Below are positions 2,234 through 63,298 of a stretch of 64,000 nucleotides of DNA, one piece after another. The position numbers and the translations under genes were made by a program. The notes beneath the pieces were generated by a model, which saw nothing but the letters and a program-made list of their open reading frames with translations, was not told where the DNA came from and did not search any database. Within the stretch, counting starts at the first letter, position 1. Every line of letters starts with the position of its first letter. This DNA comes from Minisyncoccota bacterium (GTDB taxonomy: Bacteria; Patescibacteriota; JACMRA01): the NCBI GenBank assembly GCA_043772945.1, contig JAYVFR010000021.1, positions 5,900 to 69,899 of the forward strand. The letters are read 5' to 3'.

Positions 2234-3082
2234 ATGTCCGTGCATACTGAAATTTTTAAGAAAGCTTCTAAAACTTATTACTATTCTAATATCTTTTTTC
2301 CTCCTAAAATTCAAATAAAGATCTCAAGACTCTATTCTTTTGTGAGGATTGCTGACGATTACGTGGACTCTGTTCCTCAGAATAAACAAGCATTTTTGGA
2401 ATTACGCTCTAATTATAATGGTTTGCTAAATGATAAAAGTTACCAGATGAGCTTTGTAAACTCTAATCAATTAGATTTTGAGATTATACAAAGTTTCATA
2501 AATTTAATTAACGAAGAAGGTTTTGACTTGAAATGGGTCGAGGCTTTTTTGGATTCAATGGAACTTGATACTAATCCTGATTTTATTTATCAAACAATGA
2601 CTCAAACCAAAAAATATATTTACGGTTCAGCTAGTGTTATAGGGCTTTTTGTGGCAAAAATTTTAAATTTAGATGAGGCTTCTTATAAAGGAGCGACGCT
2701 GCTTGGTGATGCTTTCCAGTATATTAATTTTATTCGGGACATTGCAGAGGATGTTGTGCTCAATAGATGTTATTTCCCAAAAACTGAATTAGAAAAATTT
2801 GATTTATTAAATCTTACAAAAGAGGAGTGCTACGAGAAACCAGAGAATTTTAAGAGGTTTATGGAGGCTCAAGTTTATACTTATTCAAAATGGCAACTGA
2901 AAGCTGAGGAGTATTTTAAATATATTCCCAAAAAATACCGTATTGCTATAGCGACCGCTAGTGATATGTACGCTTGGACAGGTCTTGAAATCTCTCGGGA
3001 TCCATTTTTAGTATTTCAAAAGAAAGTTAAACCGAGAAAAAGAAGAATCTTTTTAACAGCTCTAAAGAATTTGCTGAGGTAA
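2234..3082 (+). CDS. phytoene/squalene synthase family protein (head-to-head trans-isoprenyl diphosphate synthase)
   Basis: First Asp-rich motif YSFVRIADDYVDS and second motif YINFIRDIAEDVVLNRCYFP. The 282-aa length is typical for CrtB/HpnD. Confidence 0.7.
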   Translation: MSVHTEIFKKASKTYYYSNIFFPPKIQIKISRLYSFVRIADDYVDSVPQNKQAFLELRSNYNGLLNDKSYQMSFVNSNQLDFEIIQSFINLINEEGFDLKWVEAFLDSMELDTNPDFIYQTMTQTKKYIYGSASVIGLFVAKILNLDEASYKGATLLGDAFQYINFIRDIAEDVVLNRCYFPKTELEKFDLLNLTKEECYEKPENFKRFMEAQVYTYSKWQLKAEEYFKYIPKKYRIAIATASDMYAWTGLEISRDPFLVFQKKVKPRKRRIFLTALKNLLR

Positions 3083-13324: not shown

Positions 13325-14284
13325 ATGACTAATCTTCTTTTATCTAAAACTCAAAATCCTTATACAGTTTTTACATCTACTGCTAATTCTCGTATCGTAG
13401 AAATGTGTGAAAAGCAAGAGTCTAATATTTGGCTTTCCTCTGATATTAATTTAACTCATGACGCTCGTGATTGGGATAAACTAAATTCTGAGGAGCAGAG
13501 CTTTATTAAACAAATTTTAGCTTTTTTTGCGGCTAGCGATAGTATTGTGAACGAGAATATAGTTTTAAATTACACTACTCAAGTTCAAATCCCTGAAGTT
13601 CGTTATTTTTACTACTTTCAGATGATGATGGAGGCAGTGCATAGTAGAACTTATTCACAATTAATCAACACTTTTATTAGTTCCAATGAGGAAAGAGATT
13701 TATTATTTGACTCAATTAATAATAATAAAGCAATTAAAAAGAAAGCAGATTGGTGTCGAGAGTGGATTGATGGAGATAAGCCTTTTTATGAAAAGATGAT
13801 TGCTTTCATGGCTGTTGAGGGAATTTTCTTTAGTGGATCATTCGCAGCGATTTTTTGGTTACGTGATCGTGGAATATTAGCTAATTCTCTCGGAGTTGCT
13901 AACGAATATATTTCACGCGATGAGGCACTACACTGTGAATTTGCTAGTGTGTTAATTAATGAATATAGTGGTGATGAAAAACCTACTAATCAAACTATCA
14001 CTAAAATTTTAACTTCAGCCCTTGACTTAGAGAAGGAATTTATTGATCAGGCAATTCCTAACAGGCTTTTTGGTATGAATAAGGAATTAATGAACCAATA
14101 TTTGGAATTTGTTTGCGATACTTGGCTAGCAGAGCTTGGTTGCCCTAAAGTTTATAACGTAACTCAGCCATTTCCATTTATGGCAACTATTGGTCAAATG
14201 CGAAAAGATAATATTTTTGAAAAAACTCGAACAAACTACGCAAGACCAACTGAGGCTAAAGAAATGGAATGGGACTTTATCTAA
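13325..14284 (+). CDS. nrdB: class Ia ribonucleotide reductase beta subunit
   Basis: FAASDSIVNEN, MEAVHSRTYS and the FFSGSFAAIFWL...SRDEALHCEF iron and tyrosyl ligand motifs. Confidence 0.9.
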   Translation: MTNLLLSKTQNPYTVFTSTANSRIVEMCEKQESNIWLSSDINLTHDARDWDKLNSEEQSFIKQILAFFAASDSIVNENIVLNYTTQVQIPEVRYFYYFQMMMEAVHSRTYSQLINTFISSNEERDLLFDSINNNKAIKKKADWCREWIDGDKPFYEKMIAFMAVEGIFFSGSFAAIFWLRDRGILANSLGVANEYISRDEALHCEFASVLINEYSGDEKPTNQTITKILTSALDLEKEFIDQAIPNRLFGMNKELMNQYLEFVCDTWLAELGCPKVYNVTQPFPFMATIGQMRKDNIFEKTRTNYARPTEAKEMEWDFI

Positions 14285-14326
14285 AAAACTTTGAAAAACT
14301 TGCTAAAAAATCTAACGCAAACAACT

Positions 14327-29574: not shown

Positions 29575-30759
29575 TTACAACCTTTGAATATCTAATTGGA
29601 ATTTTTCGGTGCTGAAATCTTTGCTAGAATTTTTGATTTTATCAATCTTCCAGTTGTTAGTTTTATCTAGTTCTTGGAATTTTAAAATCGCGTTTTTGAG
29701 AGAATTTATTGTTTGTTCTTTAAACAAAACTCCATTTTCACCGTTTTTAATGTATTCTAAAGCCCCACCTTCCCCAAAAGCAATTACAGTCACGCCGCTA
29801 GCTAAAACTTCAATTGGTGTGATTCCAAAATCCTCTTTGCCAGGAAATAAAAAAGCACTACAAGTTTCTAATAAATTAAAATACTGCTTCTCGCTAGTTC
29901 GTCCTAGGAATTCTACTAAACCAGCTTTTTCAGGGTTTTTCGAGACATAGTCGTCTACTTGATTTTTTAGATCGTTCATTTGCTCGATCATTCCTGAGAC
30001 TCCGCTAATTTTGAGTTTTATACCGAGTTCAAGACAGGCTCCGATAGCTAAATCAAGGCGTTTATGAAAGCTAATTCTGCCATGGCAAAGAAAGAAAGGC
30101 TCTGTAATACTTATTTTTCTGATTAGCGGCAGAAACTTTTCAAGTTCAATTGGTGGGTAAATGACTACAGAATCAGTGTTATAAATTTGTTTGATTGTTT
30201 GTTGAATGAAAATTGAATTAGCCACCCAAATACACCCAACAGAATTAAGATATCTAGCAGCTTTTTGATCAAGAGGTTTAAGGAAAAACTTAAAAATTGG
30301 AATAAGAATTCTGTACAAGTAAGGTAGGGATTTATGGTCTGCTTCGGTTACTAAGCCATTTAAGTATCTTGTAGGGGAGTGGCAATAATGAATAATTTTA
30401 GGGCAATTACGAAAGCGGACTTGCTTGGCACAATCAGTAGAGGAAATAATTACTAAATCATAATTTTTGATTGTTGTAAGTCTCATCAGAACTGGATAAA
30501 GCCAAAATAAGTGCTTTTGGAATTTGGCTAAAACTCTTTGATTCTTAAATTTTAGGTTATACAAAGTTTGAATAACGGTGTTAAAAACTCTTTTTTCGTC
30601 AAAAGCTTTTTTAATATTAATTGCTGATTGGAATTTCTCAGGTGTGCTAAAGCTGGTATAAACGTCAGCGCTTGGATAAATCTCTAGTAAACTGTCCACC
30701 ACTTTCTCGGCTCCACCATTTTGAAATAAAAAATCATGTACAATTGCAACTCGAGTCAT
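29575..30759 (-). CDS. GT4-family glycosyltransferase
   Basis: MTRVAIVHDFLFQNGGAEKVV start. The C-terminal EDFGITPIEVLASGVTVIAFGEGGALEYI matches the EX7E region. Confidence 0.8.
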   Translation of the reverse strand: MTRVAIVHDFLFQNGGAEKVVDSLLEIYPSADVYTSFSTPEKFQSAINIKKAFDEKRVFNTVIQTLYNLKFKNQRVLAKFQKHLFWLYPVLMRLTTIKNYDLVIISSTDCAKQVRFRNCPKIIHYCHSPTRYLNGLVTEADHKSLPYLYRILIPIFKFFLKPLDQKAARYLNSVGCIWVANSIFIQQTIKQIYNTDSVVIYPPIELEKFLPLIRKISITEPFFLCHGRISFHKRLDLAIGACLELGIKLKISGVSGMIEQMNDLKNQVDDYVSKNPEKAGLVEFLGRTSEKQYFNLLETCSAFLFPGKEDFGITPIEVLASGVTVIAFGEGGALEYIKNGENGVLFKEQTINSLKNAILKFQELDKTNNWKIDKIKNSSKDFSTEKFQLDIQRL

Positions 30760-47871: not shown

Positions 47872-48827
47872 ATGTTGGACAAACTTTCCATTCAAATCTC
47901 ACATTTATTGATCTGTTCGCTGGTATTGGTGGTTTTCATCTTGGATTGCATAATCTAGGATGAAATGTGTTTTTGCAAGTGAAATTGACAAACATGCTCG
48001 AAATACCTACCAAACTAACTTTTCTAGCATTAGCCCAGAGCTTTTTGATAATAACAACAAATTATTCAATGAAGATATCACAACGATAGACCCAAAAGAA
48101 ATTCCAGACTTTGACATTTTGTGTGGGAGGGTTTTCATGTCAGCCCTTTAGTAACGCTAGTTTTAAGAAAGGTTTTGAAGATACTAGAGGAACTTTGTTT
48201 TTCAATATTGCTGAAATAATAAGAGTAAAACAACCAAAAGCATTTTTTTTGGAGAATATAAGAGGATTACTTAACCACGACGACGGCAAAACTTTTGAGA
48301 CAATTCGTAGAGTGATTGAAGATGACCTTGGGTACTCATTTTATTACAAAATTGTCCATGCGAGTGATTACGGTATGCCACAATTCAGACCTAGAGTATG
48401 TATTGTAGGTTTTAAAAATCATAGATTAAGCTTTGAATTTCTTAGTAAAACTCCACTTCAGTTCACAATGTCAGATGTATTTGGTGGAAAATGTAATAAA
48501 GAAATTGGTTTTACTCTCCGCTGTGGTGGGCGAGGTTCTAAAATCACTGATCGTCGAAACTGGGACAACTACCTTGTTAATGGTATAACTAGACAATTAA
48601 TGCCAAAAGAAGGCAAGAAAATGCAAGGATTTCCTGATAATTTTATACTACCAAATTCAGTTACTCAAGCAATGAAACAACTAGGTAATAGCGTTGCTGT
48701 TCCAGCGATTCAAGCCGTTGTTAAAGAAATTCAAACTGTACTACAGCGAGATCCAAGTAAGTACACAGAACAGGAATTTGAACAATTTTTACAAGTTAAG
48801 CAAGTCTCATTATTCCAATTTGCATGA
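47872..48827 (+). pseudogene. C5-cytosine DNA methyltransferase, M.HpaII-like, inactivated by several frameshifts and one in-frame TGA
   Basis: GAGGAGG SD just before ATG 47872. Motif I TFIDLFAGIGGF is in one frame. At 47956-47962 CTA GGA TGA AA TGT sits where M.HpaII-type enzymes read LGGKC. KCVFASEIDKHARNTY is in a second frame. DFDILCG then has one extra base before GFSCQPFS (expected PCQ). ENI and QLGNSVAVPAIQ are intact downstream. Confidence 0.85.
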
Positions 48828-52403: not shown

Positions 52404-52493
52404 TTATTTAAAATAAAACAGGTTATACATAGCTAGAGTTAGTCCATTTTCTCCAATTGCTTTAAAATTTTTGATTGTGATTGAGTTGAGCAT
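52404..52493 (-). pseudogene. 29-codon remnant of an AAA/ABC-like (AAA_15/OLD/RecF-like) ATPase N-terminus
   Basis: MLNSITIKNFKAIGENGLTL is the typical xxIxIxNFKxI start of such ATPases. The reading frame then runs into dispersed-repeat copy 1 (..AMYNLFYFK*). Confidence 0.45.
52421..52434 (+). repeat. dispersed repeat copy 1 (GGTTATACATAGCT)
   Basis: Core shared with the copies listed below. Forms the 3' boundary of the ATPase remnant. Confidence 0.7.
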
Positions 52494-52623
52494 ATTTTTT
52501 ATTAGTTTCTTTCAGCTATTAAACCTCTATTATTTAGGTAATCGTATTTTATTTGAGTTTTATTAAACATATTCATTCAACCAATTACTAACTTAACAAC
52601 TCGTCAAAACAGTTTTAAAAGTT

Positions 52624-53166
52624 TCAAACTAATTGCAGTATAGAATTGAAAGTTTTTAGCTTTTTTTTTAGTTCTTTAAAATTAGGAGAGTTTTTATGAA
52701 CAATATCCCAAAATTTGGCTGAGTGGTTTTTTTCTTTAATGTGGGCAAGTTCATGAATAATTACGTATTCTAACAGTTCAGTTGGTAGGAGAGATAATCT
52801 CCAATTTATTGATATAGTGTTCTTCTGTGTGCAACTTCCCCAGTGCATTCGGGCTGATGAAAGTCTAATATTTTTAAATTCAAGTTGCATTTTTTCAGAC
52901 CAGTGCTTTACTTTTGTAATTATTAAAATTTTTGCAAGTTTTTTTTGTTTTAGGATATCTAAATTCTCTAGATTTAAGCTTTTTACTAATTCTCGGGATT
53001 GGCTTATTTGGCTTAGTTTCTTTTGTATCCAAAGATTTTTTGATTGTACAAAATCTAAAATATACTTCTCTGAGGCATTTTTTGGTGCTCTGATTAAAAC
53101 TTCTCCTTCCCTAGTTATCATTAATCCAAGCGATTGACGTTTAGTTCGTTGTATTTGAATGTTCAT
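52624..53166 (-). CDS. DUF45/YgjP-like M48-family metal-dependent hydrolase
   Basis: LLEYVIIHELAHIKEKNHSAKFW. The size and N-terminal pattern match YgjP-type proteins, which often sit in type I R-M loci. Confidence 0.8.
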   Translation of the reverse strand: MNIQIQRTKRQSLGLMITREGEVLIRAPKNASEKYILDFVQSKNLWIQKKLSQISQSRELVKSLNLENLDILKQKKLAKILIITKVKHWSEKMQLEFKNIRLSSARMHWGSCTQKNTISINWRLSLLPTELLEYVIIHELAHIKEKNHSAKFWDIVHKNSPNFKELKKKLKTFNSILQLV

Positions 53167-53438
53167 TATTTTTTAAGTATATTTAGTCAATTAAACACGT
53201 ACATGGTAGTTTGTCAAAGTATAATATACTACTATATAAAAACCTCTAATGATGAACAAAAGAGGTGGCGTGTTTTATGAAAACAAAACTTATGCCAGAT
53301 CTTTTATTGTTAGGGAAGAAAGTATTAAAATAATCTATTTGAAAATCATATTATTTAATTAGGTAGGAATCAGGTTTATTTACCCTTGTATAGTTACATT
53401 ATTTAAGTTTAGAATTTTATTTTTGACCAGACGTTTTA

Positions 53439-53462
53439 ATTAGACCAAGCATTAGACCAAGC
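53439..53462. repeat. tandem duplication ATTAGACCAAGC x2
   Basis: Exact 12-mer repeated head to tail. Confidence 0.9.
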
Positions 53463-53473
53463 TTAATAGTATA

Positions 53474-54239
53474 ATGTCTGATTCATTTCCAGTTCCAAAA
53501 AATTTTGGAGAGCCAAGTAAAACAAAAGTTGTTAACTTTGAGAAACCTTTAACTGGCGAGGAGCTACACAGTTCAAAAGTTTTAGAAGAAACTCTTCCCC
53601 CTGAAAAAGTAAGAGAAATTCATGTAACACTAAGCGAGAGACTGGAAGCGTTAAATTTTTTTAGAACTAATTTGGGTTTAACACAAATTTCTTTACCTAA
53701 AATTGTTTGGGAGAACATTGAAACTGTTGCTTGTGTTGAATTTTCAAATAGCGGTAGCGTTCTCAAACTAATCCAAAGAGGTTTTTAGAAATACCAAAAA
53801 AAGAAGCAGCTTATTTACTAACTCATGAACTTGTACATTTATCTGACAAAAACAGAGTTTTTAAAAACCAAAAATATTATAGGAATATGTCAGGTATGAG
53901 ATTTGGTAATTTAAAATGGAAGTAATTCCAAATACAAGAAACGATTTGAATGAGGCTTTAACTGAGTTTTTGACTGATATTATTACTCATCAATCTGTTG
54001 GAAGTGAGATTCCACGAAAAAGGTATGGTTACCAAGAATGGAGAATGAAAATTCATAATTTTTATAACAATCTAAATCCTTCTTTTCAACACGCTTTCTT
54101 AATAGCTGTAATTGAATCGAAGCAAGTTTTAGGATCTGTATCACCGCTTTATAAATTTATGTGTGAGTATAATATTAAAAGTAGTAAAAAAAGCCCAAAG
54201 ATTTTAGATATTTTTAATTTGAAAGCTTTTGAGATTTAA
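53474..54239 (+). pseudogene. putative gluzincin-type metalloprotease gene broken by two frameshifts
   Basis: Three consecutive frames read through: ...VLKLIQRGF / EIPKKEAAYLLTHELVHLSDKN...GMRFGNLKWK* (the shift falls within the last few codons) / MEVIPNTRNDLNEALTEF... This gives HExxH plus a downstream NEALTE. The shifts lie near 53785 (in a GGTTTTT run) and near 53915. Confidence 0.5.
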
Positions 54240-54250
54240 ATTTATTAAAC

Positions 54251-54265
54251 AGATTATACATAGTT
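54251..54265 (+). repeat. dispersed repeat copy 2 (AGATTATACATAGTT)
   Basis: Core TTATACATAG, preceded by an AT-rich AAATTTATTAAAC tract like copies 1, 3 and 4. Confidence 0.65.
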
Positions 54266-54364
54266 AAACTAAAACAAAAATACTCAGATTTAAAGTTTTC
54301 TCGGGGATTTTAGACTTTTTTTCATATTTTTAGCTTAAAATACTCTCAGATCAAATAAATATTT

Positions 54365-54379
54365 AGATTATACATAGTA
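54365..54379 (+). repeat. dispersed repeat copy 3 (AGATTATACATAGTA)
   Basis: Core TTATACATAG, 114 bp after copy 2. Confidence 0.65.
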
Positions 54380-54444
54380 TAAAAATAAGGTATATAGGTA
54401 AAAAAATCATTAAAAAAACAAGTTAATTAGAAGTGAGAAAATTA

Positions 54445-54466
54445 ATTCTATTCTAATTCTATTCTA
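54445..54466. repeat. tandem duplication ATTCTATTCTA x2
   Basis: Exact 11-mer repeated head to tail. Confidence 0.9.
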
Positions 54467-54560
54467 AAAACTTGTTGAGGTTTATTCACAAACTAGTTAC
54501 GCATTGGATTGTTTAAAAATGGATGTATTTTAAAATACTCAATTTATATAGCTCAACAAT

Positions 54561-54588
54561 AATTAGATTTATTTAATTAGATTTATTG
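54561..54588. repeat. tandem duplication AATTAGATTTATT(T/G) x2
   Basis: 14-bp unit, 13/14 identical. Confidence 0.85.
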
Positions 54589-54969
54589 CTAAGTTAAGTT
54601 TTCCTAATCTCTCTAGCACAATGATTGGTGAGAGCACCAAAATTGCTAAAATGATGTATTGGTTAGCGATTCCAATTAATGTTTTTTTCATACCAGTTTG
54701 CGGAATAAAGGAACCACCGTTCTCAATAGAAATAAAAGATTACTGGTACAATCAAAAAAATGAAAGGGCTGTGTAGCAATGTTACTAGAGCTTTTTGACT
54801 TTTAGTTTTAACATTATCAACAGACAAATTAAATAAATGTCCTCCATTTAGAATTAAAAGAAAATATATGTAAAAAAAACCAGCTAAAAAATGACTGGAA
54901 AAGTTAGGTTAAATCTAAACTAAGTTAGTTTTGAATTTACAAATAATTTAACATATTAAACCCATATTT

Positions 54970-54995
54970 TTCAAACGTATTATTCAAACGTATTA
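54970..54995. repeat. tandem duplication TTCAAACGTATTA x2
   Basis: Exact 13-mer repeated head to tail. Confidence 0.9.
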
Positions 54996-55466
54996 AAGTC
55001 GCGGCTGTCTGTTGTAAAGTCATCATGAACATATCTTTTAATAATTTCATCAGTCTATATATCATTCTCTACTTCAATCACGATAATTTGCTCTTCTAAT
55101 TGGTAGGTAATATTTTGAAAATTAAAGCTTTCTGTTGAATTGCTATCTTTTTTTTTTAATAAAAAGACTTTTTTATTTATATAACAAAAACCATCTATTA
55201 CCAATTGGTCTGGTCCTTGAAACTCTCTCTTTAAACTTTTGTCTTTTAGTTTTTCAAGAAGTGGAGTTTTACAAGTAACGGGTTTATTTCTTCCTGAGAT
55301 TAGTTTTTCTTTTTTTTAGTTTCATTTGTTTCTAGTGTTGAATTCATACAGAATAAATTGTGAGGTAAATTCACATAATTACTTCGGCATATATTTTAAT
55401 CAAAAATAGATATTACTATCGGTCCAAGAACGAATTATAAGAATTAAATATTTAATGAATAAAATA

Positions 55467-55489
55467 GGTTATACATAGTTTCATAGTTT
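55467..55489 (+). repeat. dispersed repeat copy 4 (GGTTATACATAGTTTCATAGTTT)
   Basis: Shares GTTATACnnAGTTTCATAG with the reverse complement of 56801-56823. Confidence 0.8.
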
Positions 55490-55540
55490 AACTATTTATT
55501 TACTCTATTGTGCTAGATCTTTTTTTGAGTATTTTACTTT

Positions 55541-55569
55541 CCCCAGTTTTAAGGTTATACATAGTTTCA
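55541..55569 (+). repeat. dispersed repeat copy 5 (CCCCAGTTTTAAGGTTATACATAGTTTCA)
   Basis: 26/29 identical to the reverse complement of 57136-57164. Confidence 0.85.
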
Positions 55570-55711
55570 TAATTTTTTATTTTATTGTTGCTTTTTTTAA
55601 TTCTCAATATTAGTTGAATATCATTTATTGTAAGATTTTATAAAAACAAATTTTAGCTAATTTTAAAAAAATATTGTCAATTACTAGATAGTTTAATAAC
55701 TCTATTATTCT

Positions 55712-57421
55712 ATGACTTCAGAATTAAATCTTTTTTCAAAACCAGAATTACCTCAAAACATAATTTCAGACCCAAATTTAAACAAAGGCATTTCACAAAT
55801 CCCAGAAGTAAATTCCGAAGACTTAGATACTAGTTACTATTATGAAGTTTTAGTTCCGCTAAAATTACCTAATCCAATTTTAACATATTCTTCAAATAAG
55901 TTTTTGGAGGTGGGTTTAATTGTAGATATTTTAGTTAGAAATAAAGAAATCAAAGGTATAATCTGGAAAATTTTAGACAATACTGAAAATAAAGTGAGTG
56001 ATTATTTTCTTCAAAATAAGATCCAAATTCAAGTTATACGAAGTTTCACATATAATAACAGCGAAAGATCTGGGAATACAATTAAAATAAAGCTATCAAA
56101 GAAGACAATAGAGTTTTTAAAGTTAATTTACTTACATTCTTTTAACCAATTAGGAGTAATATTAGAAAGTTTTTTGTTACCTTACACCCAATTATCAAAT
56201 AAATCTTGGAGTAAAATTCAATTAGAACTAGAAAAACAAACAAAACATCAAATAAATTCAAGTACACAAACATCACAAGAGTTAAAAGAACACTCAAATC
56301 AAGCTGTTACGACTTCATTTAAAACGACTAATAATCTTATTAATAAAGAAGTTAAAAACAATTCACAATTTATTTCCTTTGAGGTTAATCAATTAGTAGA
56401 ATATATTAAAATTCGTATAATGGTTCTTATACGAAGTAACATTAATGCATATTTGATCAATAAAAACGATATAATAGAGAAAAAGATTAGTTTAAACCCG
56501 ATTGTTATTGACCTAAATCTTTTACAAATAATTCCAGAAAAAAAATACTTAAAAGTAATTCAGAGAGAATTTAATTGGAAACTAATAACTCAAGCTTTTG
56601 AAAGAGAGTTTAATTTATTAGAAGAGTTTAAAAACCAAAATTTTAAGATTAACATAATAAGCAATAGTTTTAATTATAGTGAAAAAAGTTCTGAATCTCA
56701 GACCTTAATTTCCAAGCTTATTTTTTTAAATTTAAAACAAGATCAGAGCTGTTTAATTAAAAGTGACAAAATTAATAAGAAAACTGAACAAGATCATAAA
56801 AGCTATGAAACTTCGTATAACTCAAATATTTCGTTAAACGTCCCTAATGTTGATATTCTAATAAACTTAAATATTTATACAGGAAGTCGAAGTATTATGT
56901 TTCTACCTTTTGAGTTTGTTGATTTAATTTATTTATTTGATGAAGGAAGTAGCTATTATATTCAAGAACAAAATAGTTTGTACTATGACACCCGTGAATT
57001 AATTTATTACTTTGCAAGAATTTACAGCTCTAGTTTATATCTAATAAGTAATCATCAATCTACTAGAGCTTATCAATACCAAAAAACTTTATTGACTTCT
57101 CCGACCTTAAAAAAAAAGTTAGACACTGAGAGTATTGAAACTTCGTATAACCTTAAAACTGAGGAAAATATTAAAATTAGCTATAACACGGCTAGTGTTG
57201 TTATTGCTGAAACTATCGAAGAAAAAAAATTAGAAAAACAATACTCTGAGAGCTTAGAAAATGAGTTTTTTGGTGACTCTGACTATTATGATAATGAAAA
57301 CACTCAAAAGTCTCTCAGAATTAATCTGGTGAAGCGGAGTTACTTCAATGCGTCAATAACTGATATCTTTTCTTTTGAAGTGGACCAAATAATCAAAAAA
57401 GAACTTGGCTTGGAAGATTAA
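55712..57421 (+). CDS. PriA-derived protein: N-terminal 3'-DNA-binding-like domain plus a degenerate first RecA domain. Catalytic motifs are lost and the C-terminal half is missing
   Basis: YYYEVLVPLKLPNPILTYSS...VGLIVDILVRNKEIKGIIW parallels the PriA N-terminus. IYTGSRSIMFLPFEFVDLIYLFDEGSSYYIQEQNSLYYDTRELIYYFARI...LISNHQS parallels IVIGTRSALFxPFxNLGLIIxDEEHDxSYKQ...RYxARD...GSATPS. The Walker A position reads VLIRSNINAY. There is no Cys-rich region or second RecA domain. Confidence 0.6.
   Translation: MTSELNLFSKPELPQNIISDPNLNKGISQIPEVNSEDLDTSYYYEVLVPLKLPNPILTYSSNKFLEVGLIVDILVRNKEIKGIIWKILDNTENKVSDYFLQNKIQIQVIRSFTYNNSERSGNTIKIKLSKKTIEFLKLIYLHSFNQLGVILESFLLPYTQLSNKSWSKIQLELEKQTKHQINSSTQTSQELKEHSNQAVTTSFKTTNNLINKEVKNNSQFISFEVNQLVEYIKIRIMVLIRSNINAYLINKNDIIEKKISLNPIVIDLNLLQIIPEKKYLKVIQREFNWKLITQAFEREFNLLEEFKNQNFKINIISNSFNYSEKSSESQTLISKLIFLNLKQDQSCLIKSDKINKKTEQDHKSYETSYNSNISLNVPNVDILINLNIYTGSRSIMFLPFEFVDLIYLFDEGSSYYIQEQNSLYYDTRELIYYFARIYSSSLYLISNHQSTRAYQYQKTLLTSPTLKKKLDTESIETSYNLKTEENIKISYNTASVVIAETIEEKKLEKQYSESLENEFFGDSDYYDNENTQKSLRINLVKRSYFNASITDIFSFEVDQIIKKELGLED
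56033..56048 (+). repeat. dispersed repeat copy 6 (GTTATACGAAGTTTCA), in frame inside the priA-like CDS
   Basis: This exact 16-mer is the reverse complement of 56806-56821 and 57136-57151. Codon-aligned (V I R S F). Confidence 0.85.
56410..56433. repeat. perfect palindromic copy 7: TTCGTATAA-TGGTTC-TTATACGAA (9-6-9)
   Basis: The two 9-bp arms are exact reverse complements around a 6-bp spacer. The arms are the core of the dispersed repeat. The site encodes ..IRIMVLIRS.. at the expected Walker A position. Confidence 0.85.
56801..56823 (-). repeat. dispersed repeat copy 8 (reverse complement GAGTTATACGAAGTTTCATAGCT)
   Basis: Inverted relative to copies 4-6. Codon-aligned in the priA-like CDS (S Y E T S Y N S). 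Confidence 0.85.
57136..57164 (-). repeat. dispersed repeat copy 9 (reverse complement CCTCAGTTTTAAGGTTATACGAAGTTTCA)
   Basis: 26/29 match to copy 5 in inverted orientation. Shares the exact 17-mer CTTCGTATAACCTTAAA with 61202-61218. Confidence 0.85.
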
Positions 57422-57528
57422 AAGCTCTAAATAAGTAGTAAAGTCTGGATCGATTAAGATTTTCTCTATCCTTGACGATATAGATTTTGTCCGATGTTAC
57501 TAAGTTAGTAATTAGCCAGCAAAGTATA

Positions 57529-57807
57529 ATGAAAAAAAATGCCTTAAAAAAGTATCAAAACCTCAAACCAGGCGATGTCTTTTATATAATTGATAACTGT
57601 GATAAAAGAAAACCAAAAAAAATTCCAATTAGAGTTACCGAAAAAACTGATTTAGGAGACGACAAAACAGGATACGTCACAGAAGATGGAATTATAGTCT
57701 TCTATCAGTGTGATTGTTTAAGAACTTTCAGATTTAGATTTACTGTTCCTAAAGATTTTATCAATGTTAAAGATGAAAATCAATTTTATTATCTTTCTTT
57801 AGAATAA
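57529..57807 (+). CDS. hypothetical small protein
   Basis: The ORF is open from TTG 57487 and the first ATG is at 57529. Followed by a family T3 terminator. Confidence 0.4.
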   Translation: MKKNALKKYQNLKPGDVFYIIDNCDKRKPKKIPIRVTEKTDLGDDKTGYVTEDGIIVFYQCDCLRTFRFRFTVPKDFINVKDENQFYYLSLE

Positions 57808-57864
57808 AATAGGAAGATTATCAAACTAGATAAACCAACAAACTTTTCTCCCTAACCCCATAAT

Positions 57865-57897
57865 CCAGCAATTGATTTATATCTTGCTGGTTTTTTT
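57865..57897 (+). terminator. intrinsic terminator, family T3 (CCAGCAA-N12-TTGCTGG-T7)
   Basis: Perfect 7-bp stem plus a T-run. The flanks (AACCCC upstream, TTTATTCAAATATTTTTT downstream) recur at 59011-59046. Confidence 0.65.
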
Positions 57898-57923
57898 ATT
57901 CAAATATTTTTTTTATTCAAATA
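57891..57923. repeat. tandem duplication of about 16 bp (T7-8 ATTCAAATA x2)
   Basis: TTTTTTTATTCAAATA followed by TTTTTTTTATTCAAATA. Confidence 0.85.
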
Positions 57924-57980
57924 ATTAACACCATTCTTAAACTTTAAAGATAAACTTTATAAAAACTCCTTATATAATTT

Positions 57981-58337
57981 TCAAATTCTTGAGGAGACAT
58001 TATTAATTTTAGCCAAATCATTTAAAACTATCCAGGAACTACCAAAGCAATCATTAAATATTCTATTTTTTCGTACGTCCAAATTGCCATCAATTGAATT
58101 AGCGTTTCTGTGTTCGGGGTTCCAAAAATTATGCCTGATAGAATAATTTGGTTCAGTGTATCTGCGAGCTACAATATAAACAGTAACACGAATATTGCCT
58201 AAATGAAAATCAAAAACTATATTGCCTAAATGAAAATCAAAAACTTCAGAAGTTTGTACTTCCTGCACATTCTTTTCTTCCTTAGAATTATCAGGATCTT
58301 TAGGACCATTAGTTAATCTAATTAATTTACTTTCCAT
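57981..58337 (-). CDS. hypothetical protein containing an in-frame 27-bp tandem duplication
   Basis: VFDFHLGNI occurs twice. Overlaps the upstream ATP-grasp remnant by 11 nt. Confidence 0.4.
   Translation of the reverse strand: MESKLIRLTNGPKDPDNSKEEKNVQEVQTSEVFDFHLGNIVFDFHLGNIRVTVYIVARRYTEPNYSIRHNFWNPEHRNANSIDGNLDVRKNRIFNDCFGSSWIVLNDLAKINNVSSRI
58192..58244. repeat. tandem duplication: 26-mer ATATTGCCTAAATGAAAATCAAAAAC x2, 27-bp period
   Basis: 58192-58217 and 58219-58244 are identical. Confidence 0.9.
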
Positions 58338-58743
58338 CTATCTCTCTGTTTAAAAGGTTTAAAGATTGAAAATATTTTGATAGTCCAGTTTTATATAAAT
58401 TATAAACAATTCCCTCATCATTTTGCTCCAAGAAAATTGTAAGCCCTGGGTTAGTATTAATTTCAATCAAAGACATTATATTATTTCGATCTATTACAAT
58501 ATCAAGACCACACCAAAATATATTAAGTTTTTGAAAAATTGGATTTACAAACGATTGAACCTGCCTTTTAAAATTCAAATCAGAAATTAAAACAGCTTTA
58601 CTACCCTCCCAATGGAAAGGACTTAAATTACATTTATTTATCTGCTTATAAAGAATTGACATTCCCATATATATATGCCAGCTTCGAGGTGCTGGTTTTA
58701 AAAAAGACCGGCGCAAAAACGCACAACAAAGGGAAAATCTCAT
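58327..58743 (-). pseudogene. ATP-grasp enzyme, C-terminal part only (RimK-like)
   Basis: WCGLDIVIDRNNIMSLIEINTNPGLTIF matches the C-terminal ATP-grasp motif (GxDxx...xxEVNxxPG). There is no room upstream for the N-terminal and central domains. Confidence 0.5.
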
Positions 58744-58984
58744 GGAAACTGTTGCTAAAATCTACATCCGAGATAATTCAGATAGGCATTGGGAAAGGTT
58801 CGGTGAGAAAGTGGTGATTGCTAATCTTTTTCAAGATAATAATAAATACATTGGTGGCTATAGTGGAAGCTCCTTGAAAGAAGTTGAAAGCTGGTTAAAA
58901 AACGAAAAAATTTCTCACAGTACTTATATTAATGTACAAAATTTAAGTGTCGCACCAAATGGTGAAGTCTATTCTTGTAATTGA
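58742..58984 (+). CDS. hypothetical small protein
   Basis: 80-aa ORF followed by a T3 terminator copy. It occupies the place where the ATP-grasp 5' half would be. Confidence 0.4.
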   Translation: METVAKIYIRDNSDRHWERFGEKVVIANLFQDNNKYIGGYSGSSLKEVESWLKNEKISHSTYINVQNLSVAPNGEVYSCN

Positions 58985-59010
58985 TTATCCAAAGATTTTT
59001 TAACCCAACC

Positions 59011-59046
59011 CCCTAGCAATAAAACAATGTTGCTGGGTTTTTTATT
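59011..59046 (+). terminator. intrinsic terminator, family T3 copy (CCC-t-AGCAA...TTGCTGGG-T6)
   Basis: Stem with one bulged T. The flanks are homologous to 57865-57897. Confidence 0.55.
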
Positions 59047-59062
59047 TCAATATTTTTTGTAG

Positions 59063-59785
59063 CTAAATATCTTTTTTCCAGCCATTTTCTCCCAGGAACC
59101 AATTACCAGGACAAGTAGTAGACAGCAATAACTCTCTATGCCCAGAAACGTTTTGAATTAAATATTTCTCTTTGTAATGTACAATAAGTTTATTTAAAGA
59201 GTTTATTTGCTTGTTGCTCGGTTTAGGAGTTTGAGGGTCAGTAAAATCACCTACTAAACAAATTCCAATAGAATTAAAGTTATTTCCTTTACAATGCCAG
59301 CCTAAGTATTCGTCTTTTAAAGCTTGAATTATTTCCCCATCTGGAAACACTAACCAATGATAAGCAATAAAAATTTGTTCACCATTCAAATAATGCCCAG
59401 AATAAATTGGTTTATTATATTCGTTGTAAAGTAAATTAGAGAAATAATCTCCATATTGCCTAATTAGTTGCAAAGCATTTATCCATTCAAAAATTTCTTG
59501 ATTAGTCTGCTCTAGTAAAATTCCATCAGAATGGCTATGATGCAAAACTATTTGTTTAATTTCACTCCTTAGACTATCATCATTAACTCCAGCTTTAGAG
59601 ATATAAACTTGTTTTTGTTTTAATAAATTTAGGACCAAAGATACATAAGCATTTTTCTTTTCTTTCCATTCGTTAGTTTTTAATTCTTGAGCAATTTCCT
59701 CAAAAAAATATTCTTTCCAAATAGGTCTCATTAAAATAGCCCAGTTAGGACTTTCAAAGATTTCCCGAGTTTGATTATTTAACAT
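59063..59785 (-). CDS. N-acetylmuramoyl-L-alanine amidase (Amidase_2/PGRP domain) with an N-terminal extension
   Basis: IVLHHSHSD, YHWLVFPDGEI, GWHCKGNNFNSIGICLVGDF and VSGHRELLLSTTCPGNWF. Confidence 0.8.
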   Translation of the reverse strand: MLNNQTREIFESPNWAILMRPIWKEYFFEEIAQELKTNEWKEKKNAYVSLVLNLLKQKQVYISKAGVNDDSLRSEIKQIVLHHSHSDGILLEQTNQEIFEWINALQLIRQYGDYFSNLLYNEYNKPIYSGHYLNGEQIFIAYHWLVFPDGEIIQALKDEYLGWHCKGNNFNSIGICLVGDFTDPQTPKPSNKQINSLNKLIVHYKEKYLIQNVSGHRELLLSTTCPGNWFLGENGWKKDI

Positions 59786-59925
59786 ACCAGCCAAAATTAT
59801 TAAATTATTGAGTAAGTTAATACATAAATTTTAATACTTAGCAAGCTTTGACAGTAGAGTATTACTATGCAGTAATTGTATTTATCCGATCGACTTTCCT
59901 TCCAAAAAAACTAGGGTTTATCAAA

Positions 59926-60498
59926 ATGAGTATTCCTGCTTGGTTTGCAGATAACTTTATTAGAGAGATAGTTAGACAAGTTTCTTGTTCAATGAAATTT
60001 CTCCCACCGTCGGTTGTAGGTTTTAAACCACTCTTATATATTTTTATTTTTTCTCAGGTGATTGGCAATAGTATTAAAGCTGGAGAAAACTTAAGAGAAG
60101 TCGTTAGAGGAACTATTAATAATTACAAATTTCTCTGGTGGATTATCCAAAGAGGTTTGAAAGATATTTCTTTAAGTTCAATGATTTTCTCAAACACTCC
60201 CTGCTTACTCAAAATTGTAACAACTGAGGCTTTCAAGGAACTATTAATTAAGGAATTTGGACCTAATTATAATTCTGAAATTAACATTATTGTTGGTATT
60301 AGAAACAACATACTAAGTTGCCCGCAATCCATTGTTCAATTAGAAGGCATGCGCACTGGGGAGAATGGACTTTTTCAAGTTCTTGTTAATTCTAGCTGGG
60401 GAGAGTTTAGAGATGGAATTATTGAAGTTACTTTTACTTCAAATCAATCAAAGGAATCAAAAGCTGTTCAGTTAATAATTAAGTGCAAATTTGGCTAG
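59926..60498 (+). CDS. hypothetical protein
   Basis: The ORF is open from TTG 59848 and the first ATG is at 59926. No recognisable motif. Confidence 0.4.
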   Translation: MSIPAWFADNFIREIVRQVSCSMKFLPPSVVGFKPLLYIFIFSQVIGNSIKAGENLREVVRGTINNYKFLWWIIQRGLKDISLSSMIFSNTPCLLKIVTTEAFKELLIKEFGPNYNSEINIIVGIRNNILSCPQSIVQLEGMRTGENGLFQVLVNSSWGEFRDGIIEVTFTSNQSKESKAVQLIIKCKFG

Positions 60499-60606
60499 TT
60501 CAATTAAAAAACTAGTTTACAAAATATCCTCTCTCTTATTTTTACACCGCAAAGTATAATTTATAAGAGATTTTTTTAATAATTAAGATTTGGTCTAAAC
60601 CTAGTT

Positions 60607-62325
60607 TTAACTTCTATCAATAAATTCACTATGGCTTGCTGGATTTGGTTCCTTAGTAATTCTTATTCCTTCTAATAGCAGATCACTATCACAAGCAAGT
60701 TTGTTCATTATAAACATAGTTCTGCGAACATTGATATGACAACCACAAGTTGAACGAATCTTAGACAAATAACTTAATTCCTTAACTGAACCATGCATTA
60801 CAGTTCGAACGCTATGAGCAAAAGGTAGAAACTGAATTAATAAATACTCGGGAATATCAAGTTTTTGCTTGAGTTTTTTCCATAAAGTTTTAAGCTCTGA
60901 GTAATAATTTTGTAAATCTTTTTCAAATTCTACTCTCAAGTAATTATTTGCCTCCACACGAGTTAAGTAATCTGGCAAATGATAACCTTCCTTTAATAAA
61001 TTTTCATAACTATTCTGAATTTCCAAGAGTGGAGTAAATCTTCCCCAAGCCCTGTGTCTATTTAGATCCCTTGCCTCAGCAATACTTTGATTAATCTCAA
61101 ATGTATAACTATTAGTCTGGTATTGATTGCTCATTTGTTTATGTTGAGTAAAATTGCTCACTAGAACCTTACTAATCTCGGTTTTTTGAATATCACTTAA
61201 GCTTCGTATAACCTTAAATAAACTCTCAAAAGATAAGCTTGGATACAATGTAATGATATTTTGGACCAGAGTTTTCTCAGTTGCAGTATAGCTATTATCA
61301 AAAAACTTTACACCCAACTCTCTATAGTCTATAAAATTGGTTTTGTTCACACTTTGAATTTCATTTTGATCCTTTAGAAGCTTTGTTAAAATTTCATTTT
61401 GTTTCAAATAGTTATCAAGGTCTGCTAATGAATTTGTCTGAGTTTCATCACTTTGAGTATAGCGAATTAATTCTGAGGCTTCTGGGACATAACCAAGCTC
61501 ATCAGCAACAAGACTCTCTGGAGCAAAGAGCCATTCTAATTGCTCAGCTAAATAAACTAATTCATGATCTTTTTCACTTTTAAAAATTCCAATAAGTCGC
61601 GCCCATTCCCGAGCCGAAGTTATCCAAGCAAGACTTGTTCTATTCATAAAACCACTAGGTAAAAAATATCTGGCACTATCAAAAACCCTTGCATTAAGTG
61701 CATTTACTTGTCCTTTATTCTCAGTGTCAATTTCATAGTTTTTTGCATATTCAATTGTTAATTTTTTTACATAGTAATTATACTTAGAGAGAGAACTTTC
61801 TAGGAGAGTTTTAAATTCAGCGTTCAATTCCTTATAATTTTTATTTTGCTTAGTGCTTTCTCGCTTTTCAACTGGTAAATATTCACTCAATTCATTCAGA
61901 ATTAAATTATCAAATTTCTGGTAACGAGTCGATCTCTCCTGCCCTCCACCAAGGCTCGTTGAATAAAAGAATTTCCAAGCAAGTGCCTGAGGAACATTTT
62001 CGATATACGCAAAAAGATTTGCCATATCAGCTACGCTAGCATGACCATATTGGCGGAAAATCGTAGCCAGTTTCTCGTTTGCACCCTTTTGAGCGTTTTT
62101 AATCTCTTTAAACAAATTTATTGCCCCCAAGTCAGATCGTGAATAGCGAGCTCCTGCAAAGGCCATAATTGAAGCAACTTGTTTACCAGAATTAGGTAGA
62201 GCAGTCCTCAGCACAAAATTGGTTCGTGAATCAATTAGGGAAACCAAAACTAAATCAGTCTCATCGGGGCTAGTCATTTCAAATTTAAAATATTCAGGAA
62301 GTTTCTTAGAATTAGTTTGAGACAT
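60607..62325 (-). CDS. thyX: double-length ThyX-like (Thy1 domain) flavin-dependent thymidylate synthase homologue
   Basis: FAGARYSRSD, GGGQERSTRYQ (SxRY-like) and ARDLNRHRAWGRF (RHR motif). 572 aa, about twice a canonical ThyX. Confidence 0.65.
   Translation of the reverse strand: MSQTNSKKLPEYFKFEMTSPDETDLVLVSLIDSRTNFVLRTALPNSGKQVASIMAFAGARYSRSDLGAINLFKEIKNAQKGANEKLATIFRQYGHASVADMANLFAYIENVPQALAWKFFYSTSLGGGQERSTRYQKFDNLILNELSEYLPVEKRESTKQNKNYKELNAEFKTLLESSLSKYNYYVKKLTIEYAKNYEIDTENKGQVNALNARVFDSARYFLPSGFMNRTSLAWITSAREWARLIGIFKSEKDHELVYLAEQLEWLFAPESLVADELGYVPEASELIRYTQSDETQTNSLADLDNYLKQNEILTKLLKDQNEIQSVNKTNFIDYRELGVKFFDNSYTATEKTLVQNIITLYPSLSFESLFKVIRSLSDIQKTEISKVLVSNFTQHKQMSNQYQTNSYTFEINQSIAEARDLNRHRAWGRFTPLLEIQNSYENLLKEGYHLPDYLTRVEANNYLRVEFEKDLQNYYSELKTLWKKLKQKLDIPEYLLIQFLPFAHSVRTVMHGSVKELSYLSKIRSTCGCHINVRRTMFIMNKLACDSDLLLEGIRITKEPNPASHSEFIDRS
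61199..61218 (-). repeat. dispersed repeat copy 10 (plus strand AAGCTTCGTATAACCTTAAA), in frame inside the thyX-like CDS
   Basis: The 17-mer 61202-61218 is identical to 57141-57157. In the thyX sense strand it encodes F K V I R S L. Confidence 0.85.
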
Positions 62326-62965: not shown

Positions 62966-63298
62966 ATGACTACTAGCACAGACTCTTCCAAAAAATTCCC
63001 TTCATTACTGGTCATTACAGCAAACGGTTACGGTAAGCATACTTTCCTTGAGGAATATCGAATGACTAAGCGTGGTGGTAAAGGAATTAAAACTTTAAAC
63101 TTAACCAAAAAAATTGGTAACCCAGTTCTAATTCAATTAATGACTGGTGAGGAACAAACTCTAATAATTACAACTAAAAATGGAATTACAATTAATTTGA
63201 AACCTGAGGATATTCCTCAACTTGGTCGCTCAACTCAAGGAGTTAAAGTTATTAAACTTGAAACAAATGACTCGGTAATTAGTGCTGGAATTAATTAA
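62966..63298 (+). pseudogene. gyrA: DNA gyrase subunit A, extreme C-terminal fragment (last beta-pinwheel blades) as a stand-alone 110-aa ORF
   Basis: LLVITANGYGKHTFLEEYRMTKRGGKGIKTLNL...LIITTKNGITINLKPEDIPQLGRSTQGVKVIKLETNDSVISA matches GyrA-CTD blade repeats (GxGKR..Y..Q.RGGKG ... GR.TQGV). Confidence 0.75.

Follow-up and report, generated by a model that had tools for sequence, protein, structure and literature searches.

The closest described counterparts of the element reported here are the dif sites of bacteria and archaea, which are defined by two 11-bp arms set around a 6-bp centre (PMC5357621, PMC3025954). Effects have also been described for dif-like sites that lack a full partner arm. 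As quoted in later papers, XerD acting on XDS sites unloads Smc-ScpAB in the Bacillus subtilis terminus without recombining (Karaboja 2021, quoted in PMC11840125, PMC10945525, PMC11894783), and in vitro the outer face of XerD on a dif half-site was an approximately 5-fold better block to FtsK than the inner face, with Cre on a half-loxP site behaving alike (PMC2800217). Here we describe a family of short repeats in a 64,000-nucleotide stretch of DNA (hereafter the window) from a Minisyncoccota bacterium, a member of the Patescibacteria or candidate phyla radiation (CPR; GenBank assembly GCA_043772945.1, contig JAYVFR010000021.1, positions 5,900 to 69,899). The family comprises one palindrome, which is located inside a priA-like gene and has the layout of a dif site, together with dispersed copies of a single arm (half-sites) that point towards this palindrome from both sides.

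A directional signal of another kind is provided by the FtsK orienting polar sequences (KOPS), abundant 7–8-mers which run along the replichores and are read by FtsK gamma. To our knowledge, experimental work on half-dif sites is limited to B. subtilis and Staphylococcus aureus, where they serve as SMC unloading sites, and we know of no strictly convergent natural array of such half-sites, nor of any dif site described for the CPR/Patescibacteria. Our search of the literature found no paper joining dif or Xer with Patescibacteria. An initial annotation of the window had listed ten copies of the repeat and proposed that they were in-frame-inserting palindromic elements or dispersed recombinase target sites, and the present analysis follows up these proposals.

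Results

The palindrome (Table 1), referred to below as dif for brevity, has an 11-6-11 layout in which the arms form an inverted repeat at 10 of 11 positions (five of the six inner pairs). It is the sole site in the window that scores at least 17 of 22 against the arm consensus, and the site is likewise single in each locus of the family. Variants in relatives include TGTGCGTATAA-TGTATA-TTATACGAGGT (locus L003), AGTGCGTATAA-TGTATA-TTATAAGAAGT (L005) and TATTCGTATAA-GAAATA-TTATACGAATA (L010). The L003 variant shares 21 of its 28 positions with Escherichia coli dif (GGTGCGCATAATGTATATTATGTTAAAT, as given in PMC3025954), 19 of them among the first 21, and the window site resembles the dif of Thermococcus kodakarensis in the form quoted in PMC11840125 (TTTTGATATAATGTACCTTATATGACAA). 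Both in its architecture and in its location at what is likely to be a replication terminus (see below), the palindrome appears to belong with dif sites.

Relatives of the priA-like gene were drawn from the protein database, from species-representative genomes (metagenome-assembled genomes, MAGs, labelled Gracilibacteria, SR1 and Patescibacteria) and from metagenomes. In all 15 of the loci that contain this part of the gene, a dif-type site stands at the same codons, and the aligned proteins are approximately 27–52% identical to the window protein. Where the codons were read, in 13 loci, the first Arg is always CGT (13/13), both Ile residues are always ATA (26/26) and CGA serves for the second Arg in 11 of the 13, compared with an ordinary usage of 0.14–0.17 for CGT, 0.21–0.31 for ATA and 0.16–0.17 for CGA. 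Given that these rare codons are fixed despite such limited protein identity, the nucleotides of the dif-type site must be under selection, and the family-wide peptide R-I-x-x-x-I-R is simply the site in translation. The gene names used here should be treated with some care, as the labels given in the initial annotation proved to be weak. The 569-amino-acid open reading frame (ORF) that contains dif matches PriA with E=1e-5, which is under the curated cut-off, although two of its homologues (P0002–P0006) are named primosomal protein N' by the Joint Genome Institute (JGI). The thyX-like ORF, an unusually long 572-aa protein to the right of dif (60607–62325, minus strand), has a weak match to ThyX in Pfam (E=7e-17).

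The repeat family itself is larger than first described. All ten copies listed by the initial annotation are present, and its view that they exceed chance holds: TTATACRWAG occurs 12 times in the window compared with 0.87 expected, a number reached in none of 100 shuffles of the 64-kb sequence, and GGTTATACNNAGYTT with at most one mismatch occurs nine times compared with 0.25 expected. Ten of the 12 copies are confined to 52.4–61.2 kb, whilst the two extra full-length members, at 2484 and 30557, both lie on the plus strand within coding sequences (CDSs) and carry AA as the central dinucleotide. The half-site consensus is wwwAGR-TTATAC-RW-AG-TTTCA. When scored with a position weight matrix trained on copies from both the window and the orthologous contig L002, the 11 members other than dif reach 24–33 bits and the rest of the 64 kb stays below 10 bits, which marks them out as a discrete family. 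Nine copies fall within 5 kb of dif in the window and relatives have one to four per locus within 10 kb, whereas the 52 kb of the window distal to the cluster contain just two copies. An association of the AT variant with intergenic copies and of the GA variant with coding copies, noted previously, applies to the ten local copies but not to the distal coding copies, which are AA, nor to coding copies in L002, which are AT and GT.

Comparison with the palindrome suggests what these copies are. The half-site core, TTATAC[GA][AT]AGT, is identical over 11 nt to one dif arm. No partner arm was found at 6–8 nt spacing beside the window half-sites, and some half-sites in L005 and L010 retain just ATAA-N6 of the other arm. 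The earlier proposal of dispersed recombinase targets is therefore partly borne out, in that the core 11-mer TTATACGAAGT is one arm of an Xer/dif-type site, but the other copies are partnerless half-sites and do not look like an active crossover set. Their conservation is informative here. L002 retains both antisense half-sites of the priA-like gene, and the one at +401 is kept in L004 and L132 too, where it reads T-S-Y-N with TCG (T-T-Y-N with ACG in L002). Residues change at orthologous half-sites (R/H at −376, S/T at +401 and S/M at +731) while the motif and the rare TCG and ACG codons are retained, which shows that these half-sites are selected as DNA. The initial annotation had reasoned that its hypothesis would fail if the codons in orthologues were simply those of a normally conserved protein. 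That condition held only by half: the sites are indeed there in orthologues, yet conservation is of the nucleotides, with rare codons fixed and with the S to T and R to H changes keeping the motif. Read in this way, the dispersed copies are single dif arms with short flanks of their own, kept by selection on both sides of dif. The innermost of them are almost symmetrical about dif, at −376 and +401 bp in the window (56034/56811) and at −355 and +404 bp in L002 (5315/6074), all within the priA-like CDS.

All seven coding copies share one reading phase, reading [VI]-I-[RQ]-S-[FL] in sense and [EQ]-T-[SL]-Y-N in antisense, and the codon alignment reported previously is thus correct. This single phase is what would be expected if the copies were in-frame-inserting palindromic elements of the Rickettsia type. 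The shared phase is accounted for by tolerable codons and by the stops that the alternatives would bring in (a TAG for one of the sense phases of the AT variant and a TGA for one of the antisense phases), and the unit is 18–20 nt long and non-palindromic except at dif. Nor do the copies behave as insertions, since they are collinear with residues of priA-like homologues, the copy in the phytoene-synthase-like gene aligns gap-free to solved phytoene/dehydrosqualene synthase homologues in the PDB, and the palindrome encodes the family-wide RIxxxIR motif. We regard an origin by such insertions as extremely improbable, and for the priA-like and phytoene-synthase-like genes the idea is refuted.

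The striking property of the half-sites is their orientation. With dif itself excluded, all 17 left copies in nine loci lie on the plus strand and all 13 right copies lie on the minus strand; L131 adds two copies on the left and L132 one on the right, such that 33 of 33 copies in 11 loci have the same polarity. Approximately 26 of these are not shared by descent, which places the probability of the pattern arising by chance at about 1e-8. The distal copies of the window, at −26 and −54 kb, conform as well. As a control we considered contigs from a metagenome scan for the palindrome, which returned mostly unrelated lineages (L011–L130, GC content 0.17–0.66), with a priA-like gene in four of the 120 contigs. 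On 107 unrelated contigs bearing the same palindrome class there was no polarity (15 plus-strand and 14 minus-strand arm-like matches on the left; 14 plus and 11 minus on the right). Taken together with the conservation in orthologues, the convergent polarity points to a binding or architectural role around dif rather than to a set of crossover sites, and it suggests a directional array of putative recombinase-binding sites around the terminus.

A strand switch located exactly at dif, a density that rises towards it and the conformity of the distal copies would also be expected of a KOPS analogue, that is, of guides read by FtsK itself which orient it to dif, the likeness to a dif arm being incidental or co-evolved. 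We consider this unlikely, given that the motif is approximately 18–20 nt long rather than 7–8, that only two copies are found in the 52 kb away from dif, and that the identity of the core to a dif arm over 11 nt points to a recombinase as the reader.

One might equally ask whether the polarity simply mirrors the co-oriented genes near a terminus, with the half-sites being operators or promoter-proximal elements of a small regulon (xer autoregulation, dnaG, typA and ndk). Of the 13 intergenic copies in L005, L131, L010, L007 and L006, 12 do precede a gene of the same orientation, at a distance of 20–305 nt (no more than 140 nt for 10 of them). Certain genes turn up repeatedly and on both sides of dif, namely dnaG (left in L010, right in L007) and typA (L010 and L006), and in L005 and L131 a copy follows a TTGACA hexamer just upstream of xer. 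In the window, however, four of the 11 copies either run antisense to the gene at their position or have minus-strand genes on both sides and yet point towards dif, so the polarity does not appear to be a by-product of gene orientation. Three copies are conserved within the priA-like CDS, two of them antisense, the L005 copy at 15392 lies between convergent gene ends, and the copies are concentrated near dif instead of being scattered through the 64 kb. For these reasons a regulon is also an unlikely explanation.

The surroundings of dif were examined for signs of a replication terminus. Cumulative GC skew climbs across 54 kb and drops past approximately 56 kb, peaking at 54–56 kb; the largest left-minus-right skew difference in the window is at 54.6–55.6 kb, and the position of dif ranks 16th of 489. 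Skew is greater on the left than on the right in seven of nine loci. Coding strands show convergence on the site as well: totals for the 10 kb on either side in 12 loci are 11,755 aa encoded on the plus strand and 4,572 on the minus strand to the left, and 4,872 on plus and 15,120 on minus to the right. This convergence is seen in nearly every locus, is independent of how the locus is oriented, and is sturdier evidence for a terminus than GC skew. Since skew and gene orientation converge at the site, it is probably a replication terminus, where a dif would be expected, and the window is likely to span the terminus of this patescibacterial chromosome.

Two opposed groups of sites flanking a terminus, with copies both in and between genes, are also seen in Tus-Ter and RTP-Ter fork traps, and the half-sites could be polar fork barriers, bound by an Xer-like or another protein, which limit termination to the surroundings of dif. 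The analysis identified no terminator protein, although no search was aimed at tus/rtp homologues, and the copies (within 10 kb) are packed far more tightly than in known fork traps. We know of no precedent for Xer as a fork barrier, and we regard this explanation as very unlikely.

As the initial annotation had stated, the window holds no recombinase: neither a scan of its approximately 40 ORFs nor a six-frame motif scan found a tyrosine recombinase. A full-length Xer-type recombinase is encoded approximately 6 kb from dif in L005 and L131 (XerC 1e-61, XerD 3e-58, XerA 4e-58; the best PDB sequence matches are XerA and XerD). In these two syntenic relatives a half-site stands directly behind a TTGACA hexamer, 48–65 nt upstream of xer (L005 3372–3436, L131 497–544), and this may reflect autoregulation of xer.

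Some features of the locus might suggest that the copies are by-products or substrates of recombination, either scars of elements integrated at dif or crossover points of active inversion and deletion. The ATPase gene remnant noted previously is real and ends exactly at copy 1 (Table 1), where it may mark a deletion junction at the half-site; the region at 52.4–55.7 kb combines a low GC content with broken genes and a non-coding stretch of 1.5 kb; and the same palindrome class is present on viral contigs and in a cassette-like array. The gene-poor, pseudogene-rich character of this region, together with the remnant in copy 1, does suggest that rearrangements occur at half-sites. As an account of the family, though, recombination is distinctly unlikely. 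Recent scars cannot account for the copies that lie within housekeeping CDSs (−26 and −54 kb), nor for those shared by orthologues with approximately 27–52% protein identity to the window, there is no long antisense ORF that would keep a gene open after inversion, and an independent Logan assembly (L001) shows the arrangement of the window. In the standard scheme for integrative mobile elements exploiting Xer (IMEX), an element integrated at dif has the left arm of the chromosomal site to its left and the right arm to its right. This scheme predicts the orientation opposite to that observed, and we therefore reject IMEX scars.

Several other identities for the repeat were considered and set aside. 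For a shufflon or invertible segment of the Rci-sfx type, the longest antisense ORF between inverted copies is 51 aa and the window holds no recombinase. Transposon ends were rejected for the copies. The only tRNA of the window, at 44.3 kb, is unrelated, which removes tRNA-derived attachment (att) repeats, and no Rfam match to a known RNA family was found in the region. A standard promoter was discounted because window promoters look like CAAAGTATAAT, unlike the motif. Finally, TTATACATA resembles TTATNCACA, as might be expected of DnaA boxes at an oriC, but converging skew and gene orientation mark a terminus and not an origin.

Table 1. Members of the repeat family in the window and the genes or gene remnants directly associated with them. 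Positions are those of the window; distances are to the candidate dif; bits are weight-matrix scores.
Feature	Position	Strand	Context and remarks
Distal half-site GAGATTATACAAAGTTTCA, AA variant	2481..2498	+	Sense in phytoene-synthase-like CDS; 53.9 kb left of dif; 30.5 bits
Distal half-site AGGTTATACAAAGTTTGA, AA variant	30554..30571	+	Antisense in minus-strand glycosyltransferase CDS; 25.9 kb left of dif; 31.2 bits
Half-site copy 1 AGGTTATACATAGCTAGA	52420..52437	+	Intergenic, with minus-strand xseA and YgjP-like gene on either side; abuts AAA-ATPase N-terminal remnant
ATPase gene remnant MLNSITIKNFKAIGENGLTLAMYN (AAA/ABC-type, N-terminal 24 codons)	52423..52497	-	Minus-strand translation; stops within half-site copy 1
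Half-site AGATTATACATAGTTAAA	54251..54268	+	Directly past broken metalloprotease-like ORF; 24.4 bits
Half-site AGATTATACATAGTATAA	54365..54382	+	In 1.47-kb non-coding stretch left of priA-like gene; 24.3 bits
Half-site AGGTTATACATAGTTTCA	55466..55483	+	Upstream of priA-like gene; 29.8 bits
Half-site AGGTTATACATAGTTTCA	55552..55569	+	143 nt upstream of priA-like start codon; left arm of 35-nt inverted pair; 33.0 bits
Degenerate priA-like CDS, 569 aa	55712..57421	+	Holds candidate dif and three half-sites
Half-site AAGTTATACGAAGTTTCA	56031..56048	+	In priA-like CDS, Q-V-I-R-S-F; 376 bp left of dif; AT variant at orthologous position in L002, I-I-H-S-F
Candidate dif-type core site AATTCGTATAA-TGGTTC-TTATACGAAGT	56410..56437		Inside priA-like CDS; codes I-R-I-M-V-L-I-R-S
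Half-site, reverse complement GAGTTATACGAAGTTTCA	56806..56823	-	Antisense in priA-like CDS, E-T-S-Y-N; 401 bp right of dif
Half-site, reverse complement AGGTTATACGAAGTTTCA	57136..57153	-	Antisense in priA-like CDS, E-T-S-Y-N; 731 bp right of dif; right arm of 35-nt pair; AT variant in L002, T-M-Y-N
Half-site, reverse complement AGGTTATACGAAGCTTAA	61197..61214	-	In minus-strand thyX-like CDS, K-V-I-R-S-L; 4.8 kb right of dif; 28.9 bits

Further similarities between individual copies, described in the initial annotation, were confirmed. The 16-mer found once forward and twice inverted in the priA-like ORF and the 17-mer common to the priA-like and thyX-like ORFs are both present, and the inverted pair formed by the fifth and ninth copies extends to 35 nt (55535–55569 and 57136–57170, 89% complementary).

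Beyond the repeats, the neighbourhood of dif has several features of its own. On its left, a gene for an HExxH metalloprotease-like protein is split over two or three frames (53474–54239, plus strand; ORFs at 53474–53788 and 53916–54239, with HELVH in a third frame), and past it, next to dif, lie 1.47 kb at 25% GC with no ORF of at least 60 aa. To the right of dif are a 138-aa ATP-grasp fragment (58327–58743, minus strand), a stand-alone 110-aa ORF that matches only the C-terminal repeat of GyrA (62966–63298, plus strand), and an exact 27-bp tandem duplication in two copies (ATATTGCCTAAATGAAAATCAAAAACT, 58192–58245) within the minus-strand ORF 57981–58337. Related terminator-like hairpins, CCAGCAA...TTGCTGG followed by a T-run, stand after two small genes (57820–57890 and 59000–59040). 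The promoter-like CAAAGTATAAT recurs upstream of several genes (window 53213–53223, 57519–57529 and 60553–60563; L004 375–385) and is probably the house promoter −10 region of the lineage. Defence-type genes are found in the window at 9340–11433 and 48111–48827 and, beyond its right end, in L001 at 13532–14952 (GmrSD, a C5 cytosine methylase fragment, a second YgjP-like gene and a Type ISP restriction enzyme). Genetic code 25 (TGA = Gly) was considered for L006 and L007, from MAGs labelled Gracilibacteria and SR1, and was rejected: ORF coverage was equal under codes 11 and 25, and both look standard-code.

The palindrome class also occurs well outside these relatives. It is found, with outer arms that are palindromic too, in many unrelated lineages (L011–L130) and on 26 viral contigs (L133–L158), with ATTTCGTATAA-TGCAGG-TTATACGAAAT in 24 contigs and AGTTCGTATAA-TTGTAG-TTATACGAACC in several of the viral contigs, and going by this distribution it is a widely used, putative recombinase core site. 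The metagenome contig Ga0315545_1043616 (L029, 1–2456) carries five direct 11-6-11 sites, TTCGTATAA-N6-TTATACGAACC, at 100, 692, 1239, 1654 and 2064. Each gap between sites, as well as the stretch past the last one, is open for 64–191 aa on the minus strand, and similar plus-strand stretches are open too. The arrangement has the look of a series of cassettes delimited by Xer-type sites and recalls pdif modules or integron cassettes.

Discussion

We set out to establish what the dispersed repeats of this CPR window might be, and the evidence of architecture, codon conservation, polarity and terminus context leads us to a reading in two linked parts. It is reasonably probable, in our judgement, that both parts hold together: that the palindrome is the dif-type site of this chromosome, and as such a candidate substrate for an Xer-family tyrosine recombinase that would resolve chromosome dimers, and that the dispersed copies are polar half-sites flanking dif which would be bound by Xer.

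There are a number of observations that sit less comfortably with this reading and need to be weighed against it. The location of a dif inside a conserved CDS is atypical, and 94% of predicted dif sites are non-coding (PMC3025954). Support from GC skew is modest, with no skew switch in L003 and L009. Uniqueness of the site was judged over the 64-kb window and the loci of the family. An xer gene was seen in two relatives only and not in the window. L003 has a dif with no half-sites at all, and a looser search using the dif arms of each locus, with at most one mismatch, returned wrong-way matches in L006 (−487 and +273) and L007 (−757 and +6588). The half-sites also have conserved flanks that are missing from the dif arms, AGR upstream and TTTCA downstream (TCAAT in other clades), and as these flanks are peculiar to the half-sites, a different protein could be the one that reads them. 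Lastly, in L005, L006, L007, L010 and L131 the half-sites nearly all occupy intergenic DNA ahead of genes with the same orientation (xer, ndk, dnaG twice and typA twice), and they may have an additional or alternative transcriptional role there, such as Xer autoregulation.

If the half-sites do act with dif, a mechanism can be proposed, in which the binding of Xer and its effects on SMC, FtsK or replication forks are what we infer. Each half-site would bind one Xer monomer. The TTAT end corresponds to the inner, crossover-side end of a dif arm, such that the inner face of a bound monomer would look towards the chromosome arm and the outer face towards dif. With the outer faces directed towards dif, the orientation matches the face that is non-permissive for FtsK in vitro (PMC2800217). 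The array would then amount to a set of polar protein roadblocks around dif, which would unload SMC in the manner of the B. subtilis XDS sites, or gate FtsK-type translocases by allowing entry to the dif zone and no exit, or both.

A more far-reaching and considerably more doubtful proposal is that these elements together make up an undescribed CPR terminus module. Here dif would be encoded in the PriA-like gene with DNA and peptide constraining one another, the convergent half-sites would form a one-way gate for FtsK and SMC that replaces or supplements KOPS/MatP, and the PriA-like protein might itself be a terminus factor. We offer this tentatively.

Were the two-part reading of dif and polar half-sites to be correct, it would provide a candidate dif for one CPR clade. 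It would also indicate that a recombination site can persist within a conserved gene over long evolutionary times, fixing codons that are otherwise rare, and a natural, conserved and convergent array would suggest that recombinase monomers serve as directional roadblocks around dif in a distant phylum. On a practical level, the pattern offers a sequence signature with which termini could be located in fragmented CPR assemblies.

Comparison with known systems

It is useful to consider how this locus relates to other systems in which sites of this kind, or their arrangement, are known. Fork traps of the Tus-Ter and RTP-Ter type are alike in that two opposed groups of asymmetric sites, a number of which are within genes, surround the terminus. 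They differ in that the sites here correspond to a dif arm, and no terminator protein gene was noticed, with no search aimed at tus/rtp homologues. The loxP site used by Cre of phage P1 is close in sequence: over its central 28 bp (ACTTCGTATAATGTATGCTATACGAAGT) it agrees with the window site at 23 of the 28 positions. However, loxP has a 13-8-13 layout and belongs to a phage plasmid, where it lies beside cre, whereas the window site is chromosomal, at a likely terminus and with no adjacent recombinase.

KOPS and the SpoIIIE recognition sequences (SRS) share with the half-sites a switch in orientation at dif, a density that increases towards it and a strand skew, which for the half-sites extends to 33 of 33 copies. 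They are short and frequent motifs, whereas those described here are 18–20 nt long, rare at a distance and equivalent to a recombinase-binding arm. Closer in mechanism would be the roadblock formed by XerD on a dif half-site or by Cre on half-loxP (PMC2800217), where a single monomer acts in an orientation-dependent manner; that was an in vitro construct, with no natural array described.

The XDS sites of B. subtilis, as portrayed in the papers that quote them, provide the nearest natural parallel to the half-sites. Several dif-like sites without a full partner arm are scattered in the terminus and are read by the recombinase without recombination, and the half-sites share both the likeness to one arm and the presence of several copies around dif. 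By comparison the array described here is tight (mostly within 10 kb of dif, with some copies within 400 bp), strictly polar and located partly in CDSs.

The palindrome itself finds its closest relatives in the dif/XerCD systems of E. coli and B. subtilis and the dif/XerA systems of archaea. It has in common with these the 28-bp 11-6-11 layout, the inner ATAA...TTAT dyad and the probable location at a terminus; the TGTATA centre is shared by some of the variants found in relatives, and an Xer recombinase is encoded in relatives. Its two arms hardly differ, a feature of single-recombinase systems, the xer gene lies 6 kb or more from the site, and the outer sequence of the XerD arm is ACGAAGT compared with the bacterial consensus GTTAAAT. 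What sets the site apart from these systems most clearly is that it lies within a conserved protein-coding gene and shapes the peptide which that gene encodes.

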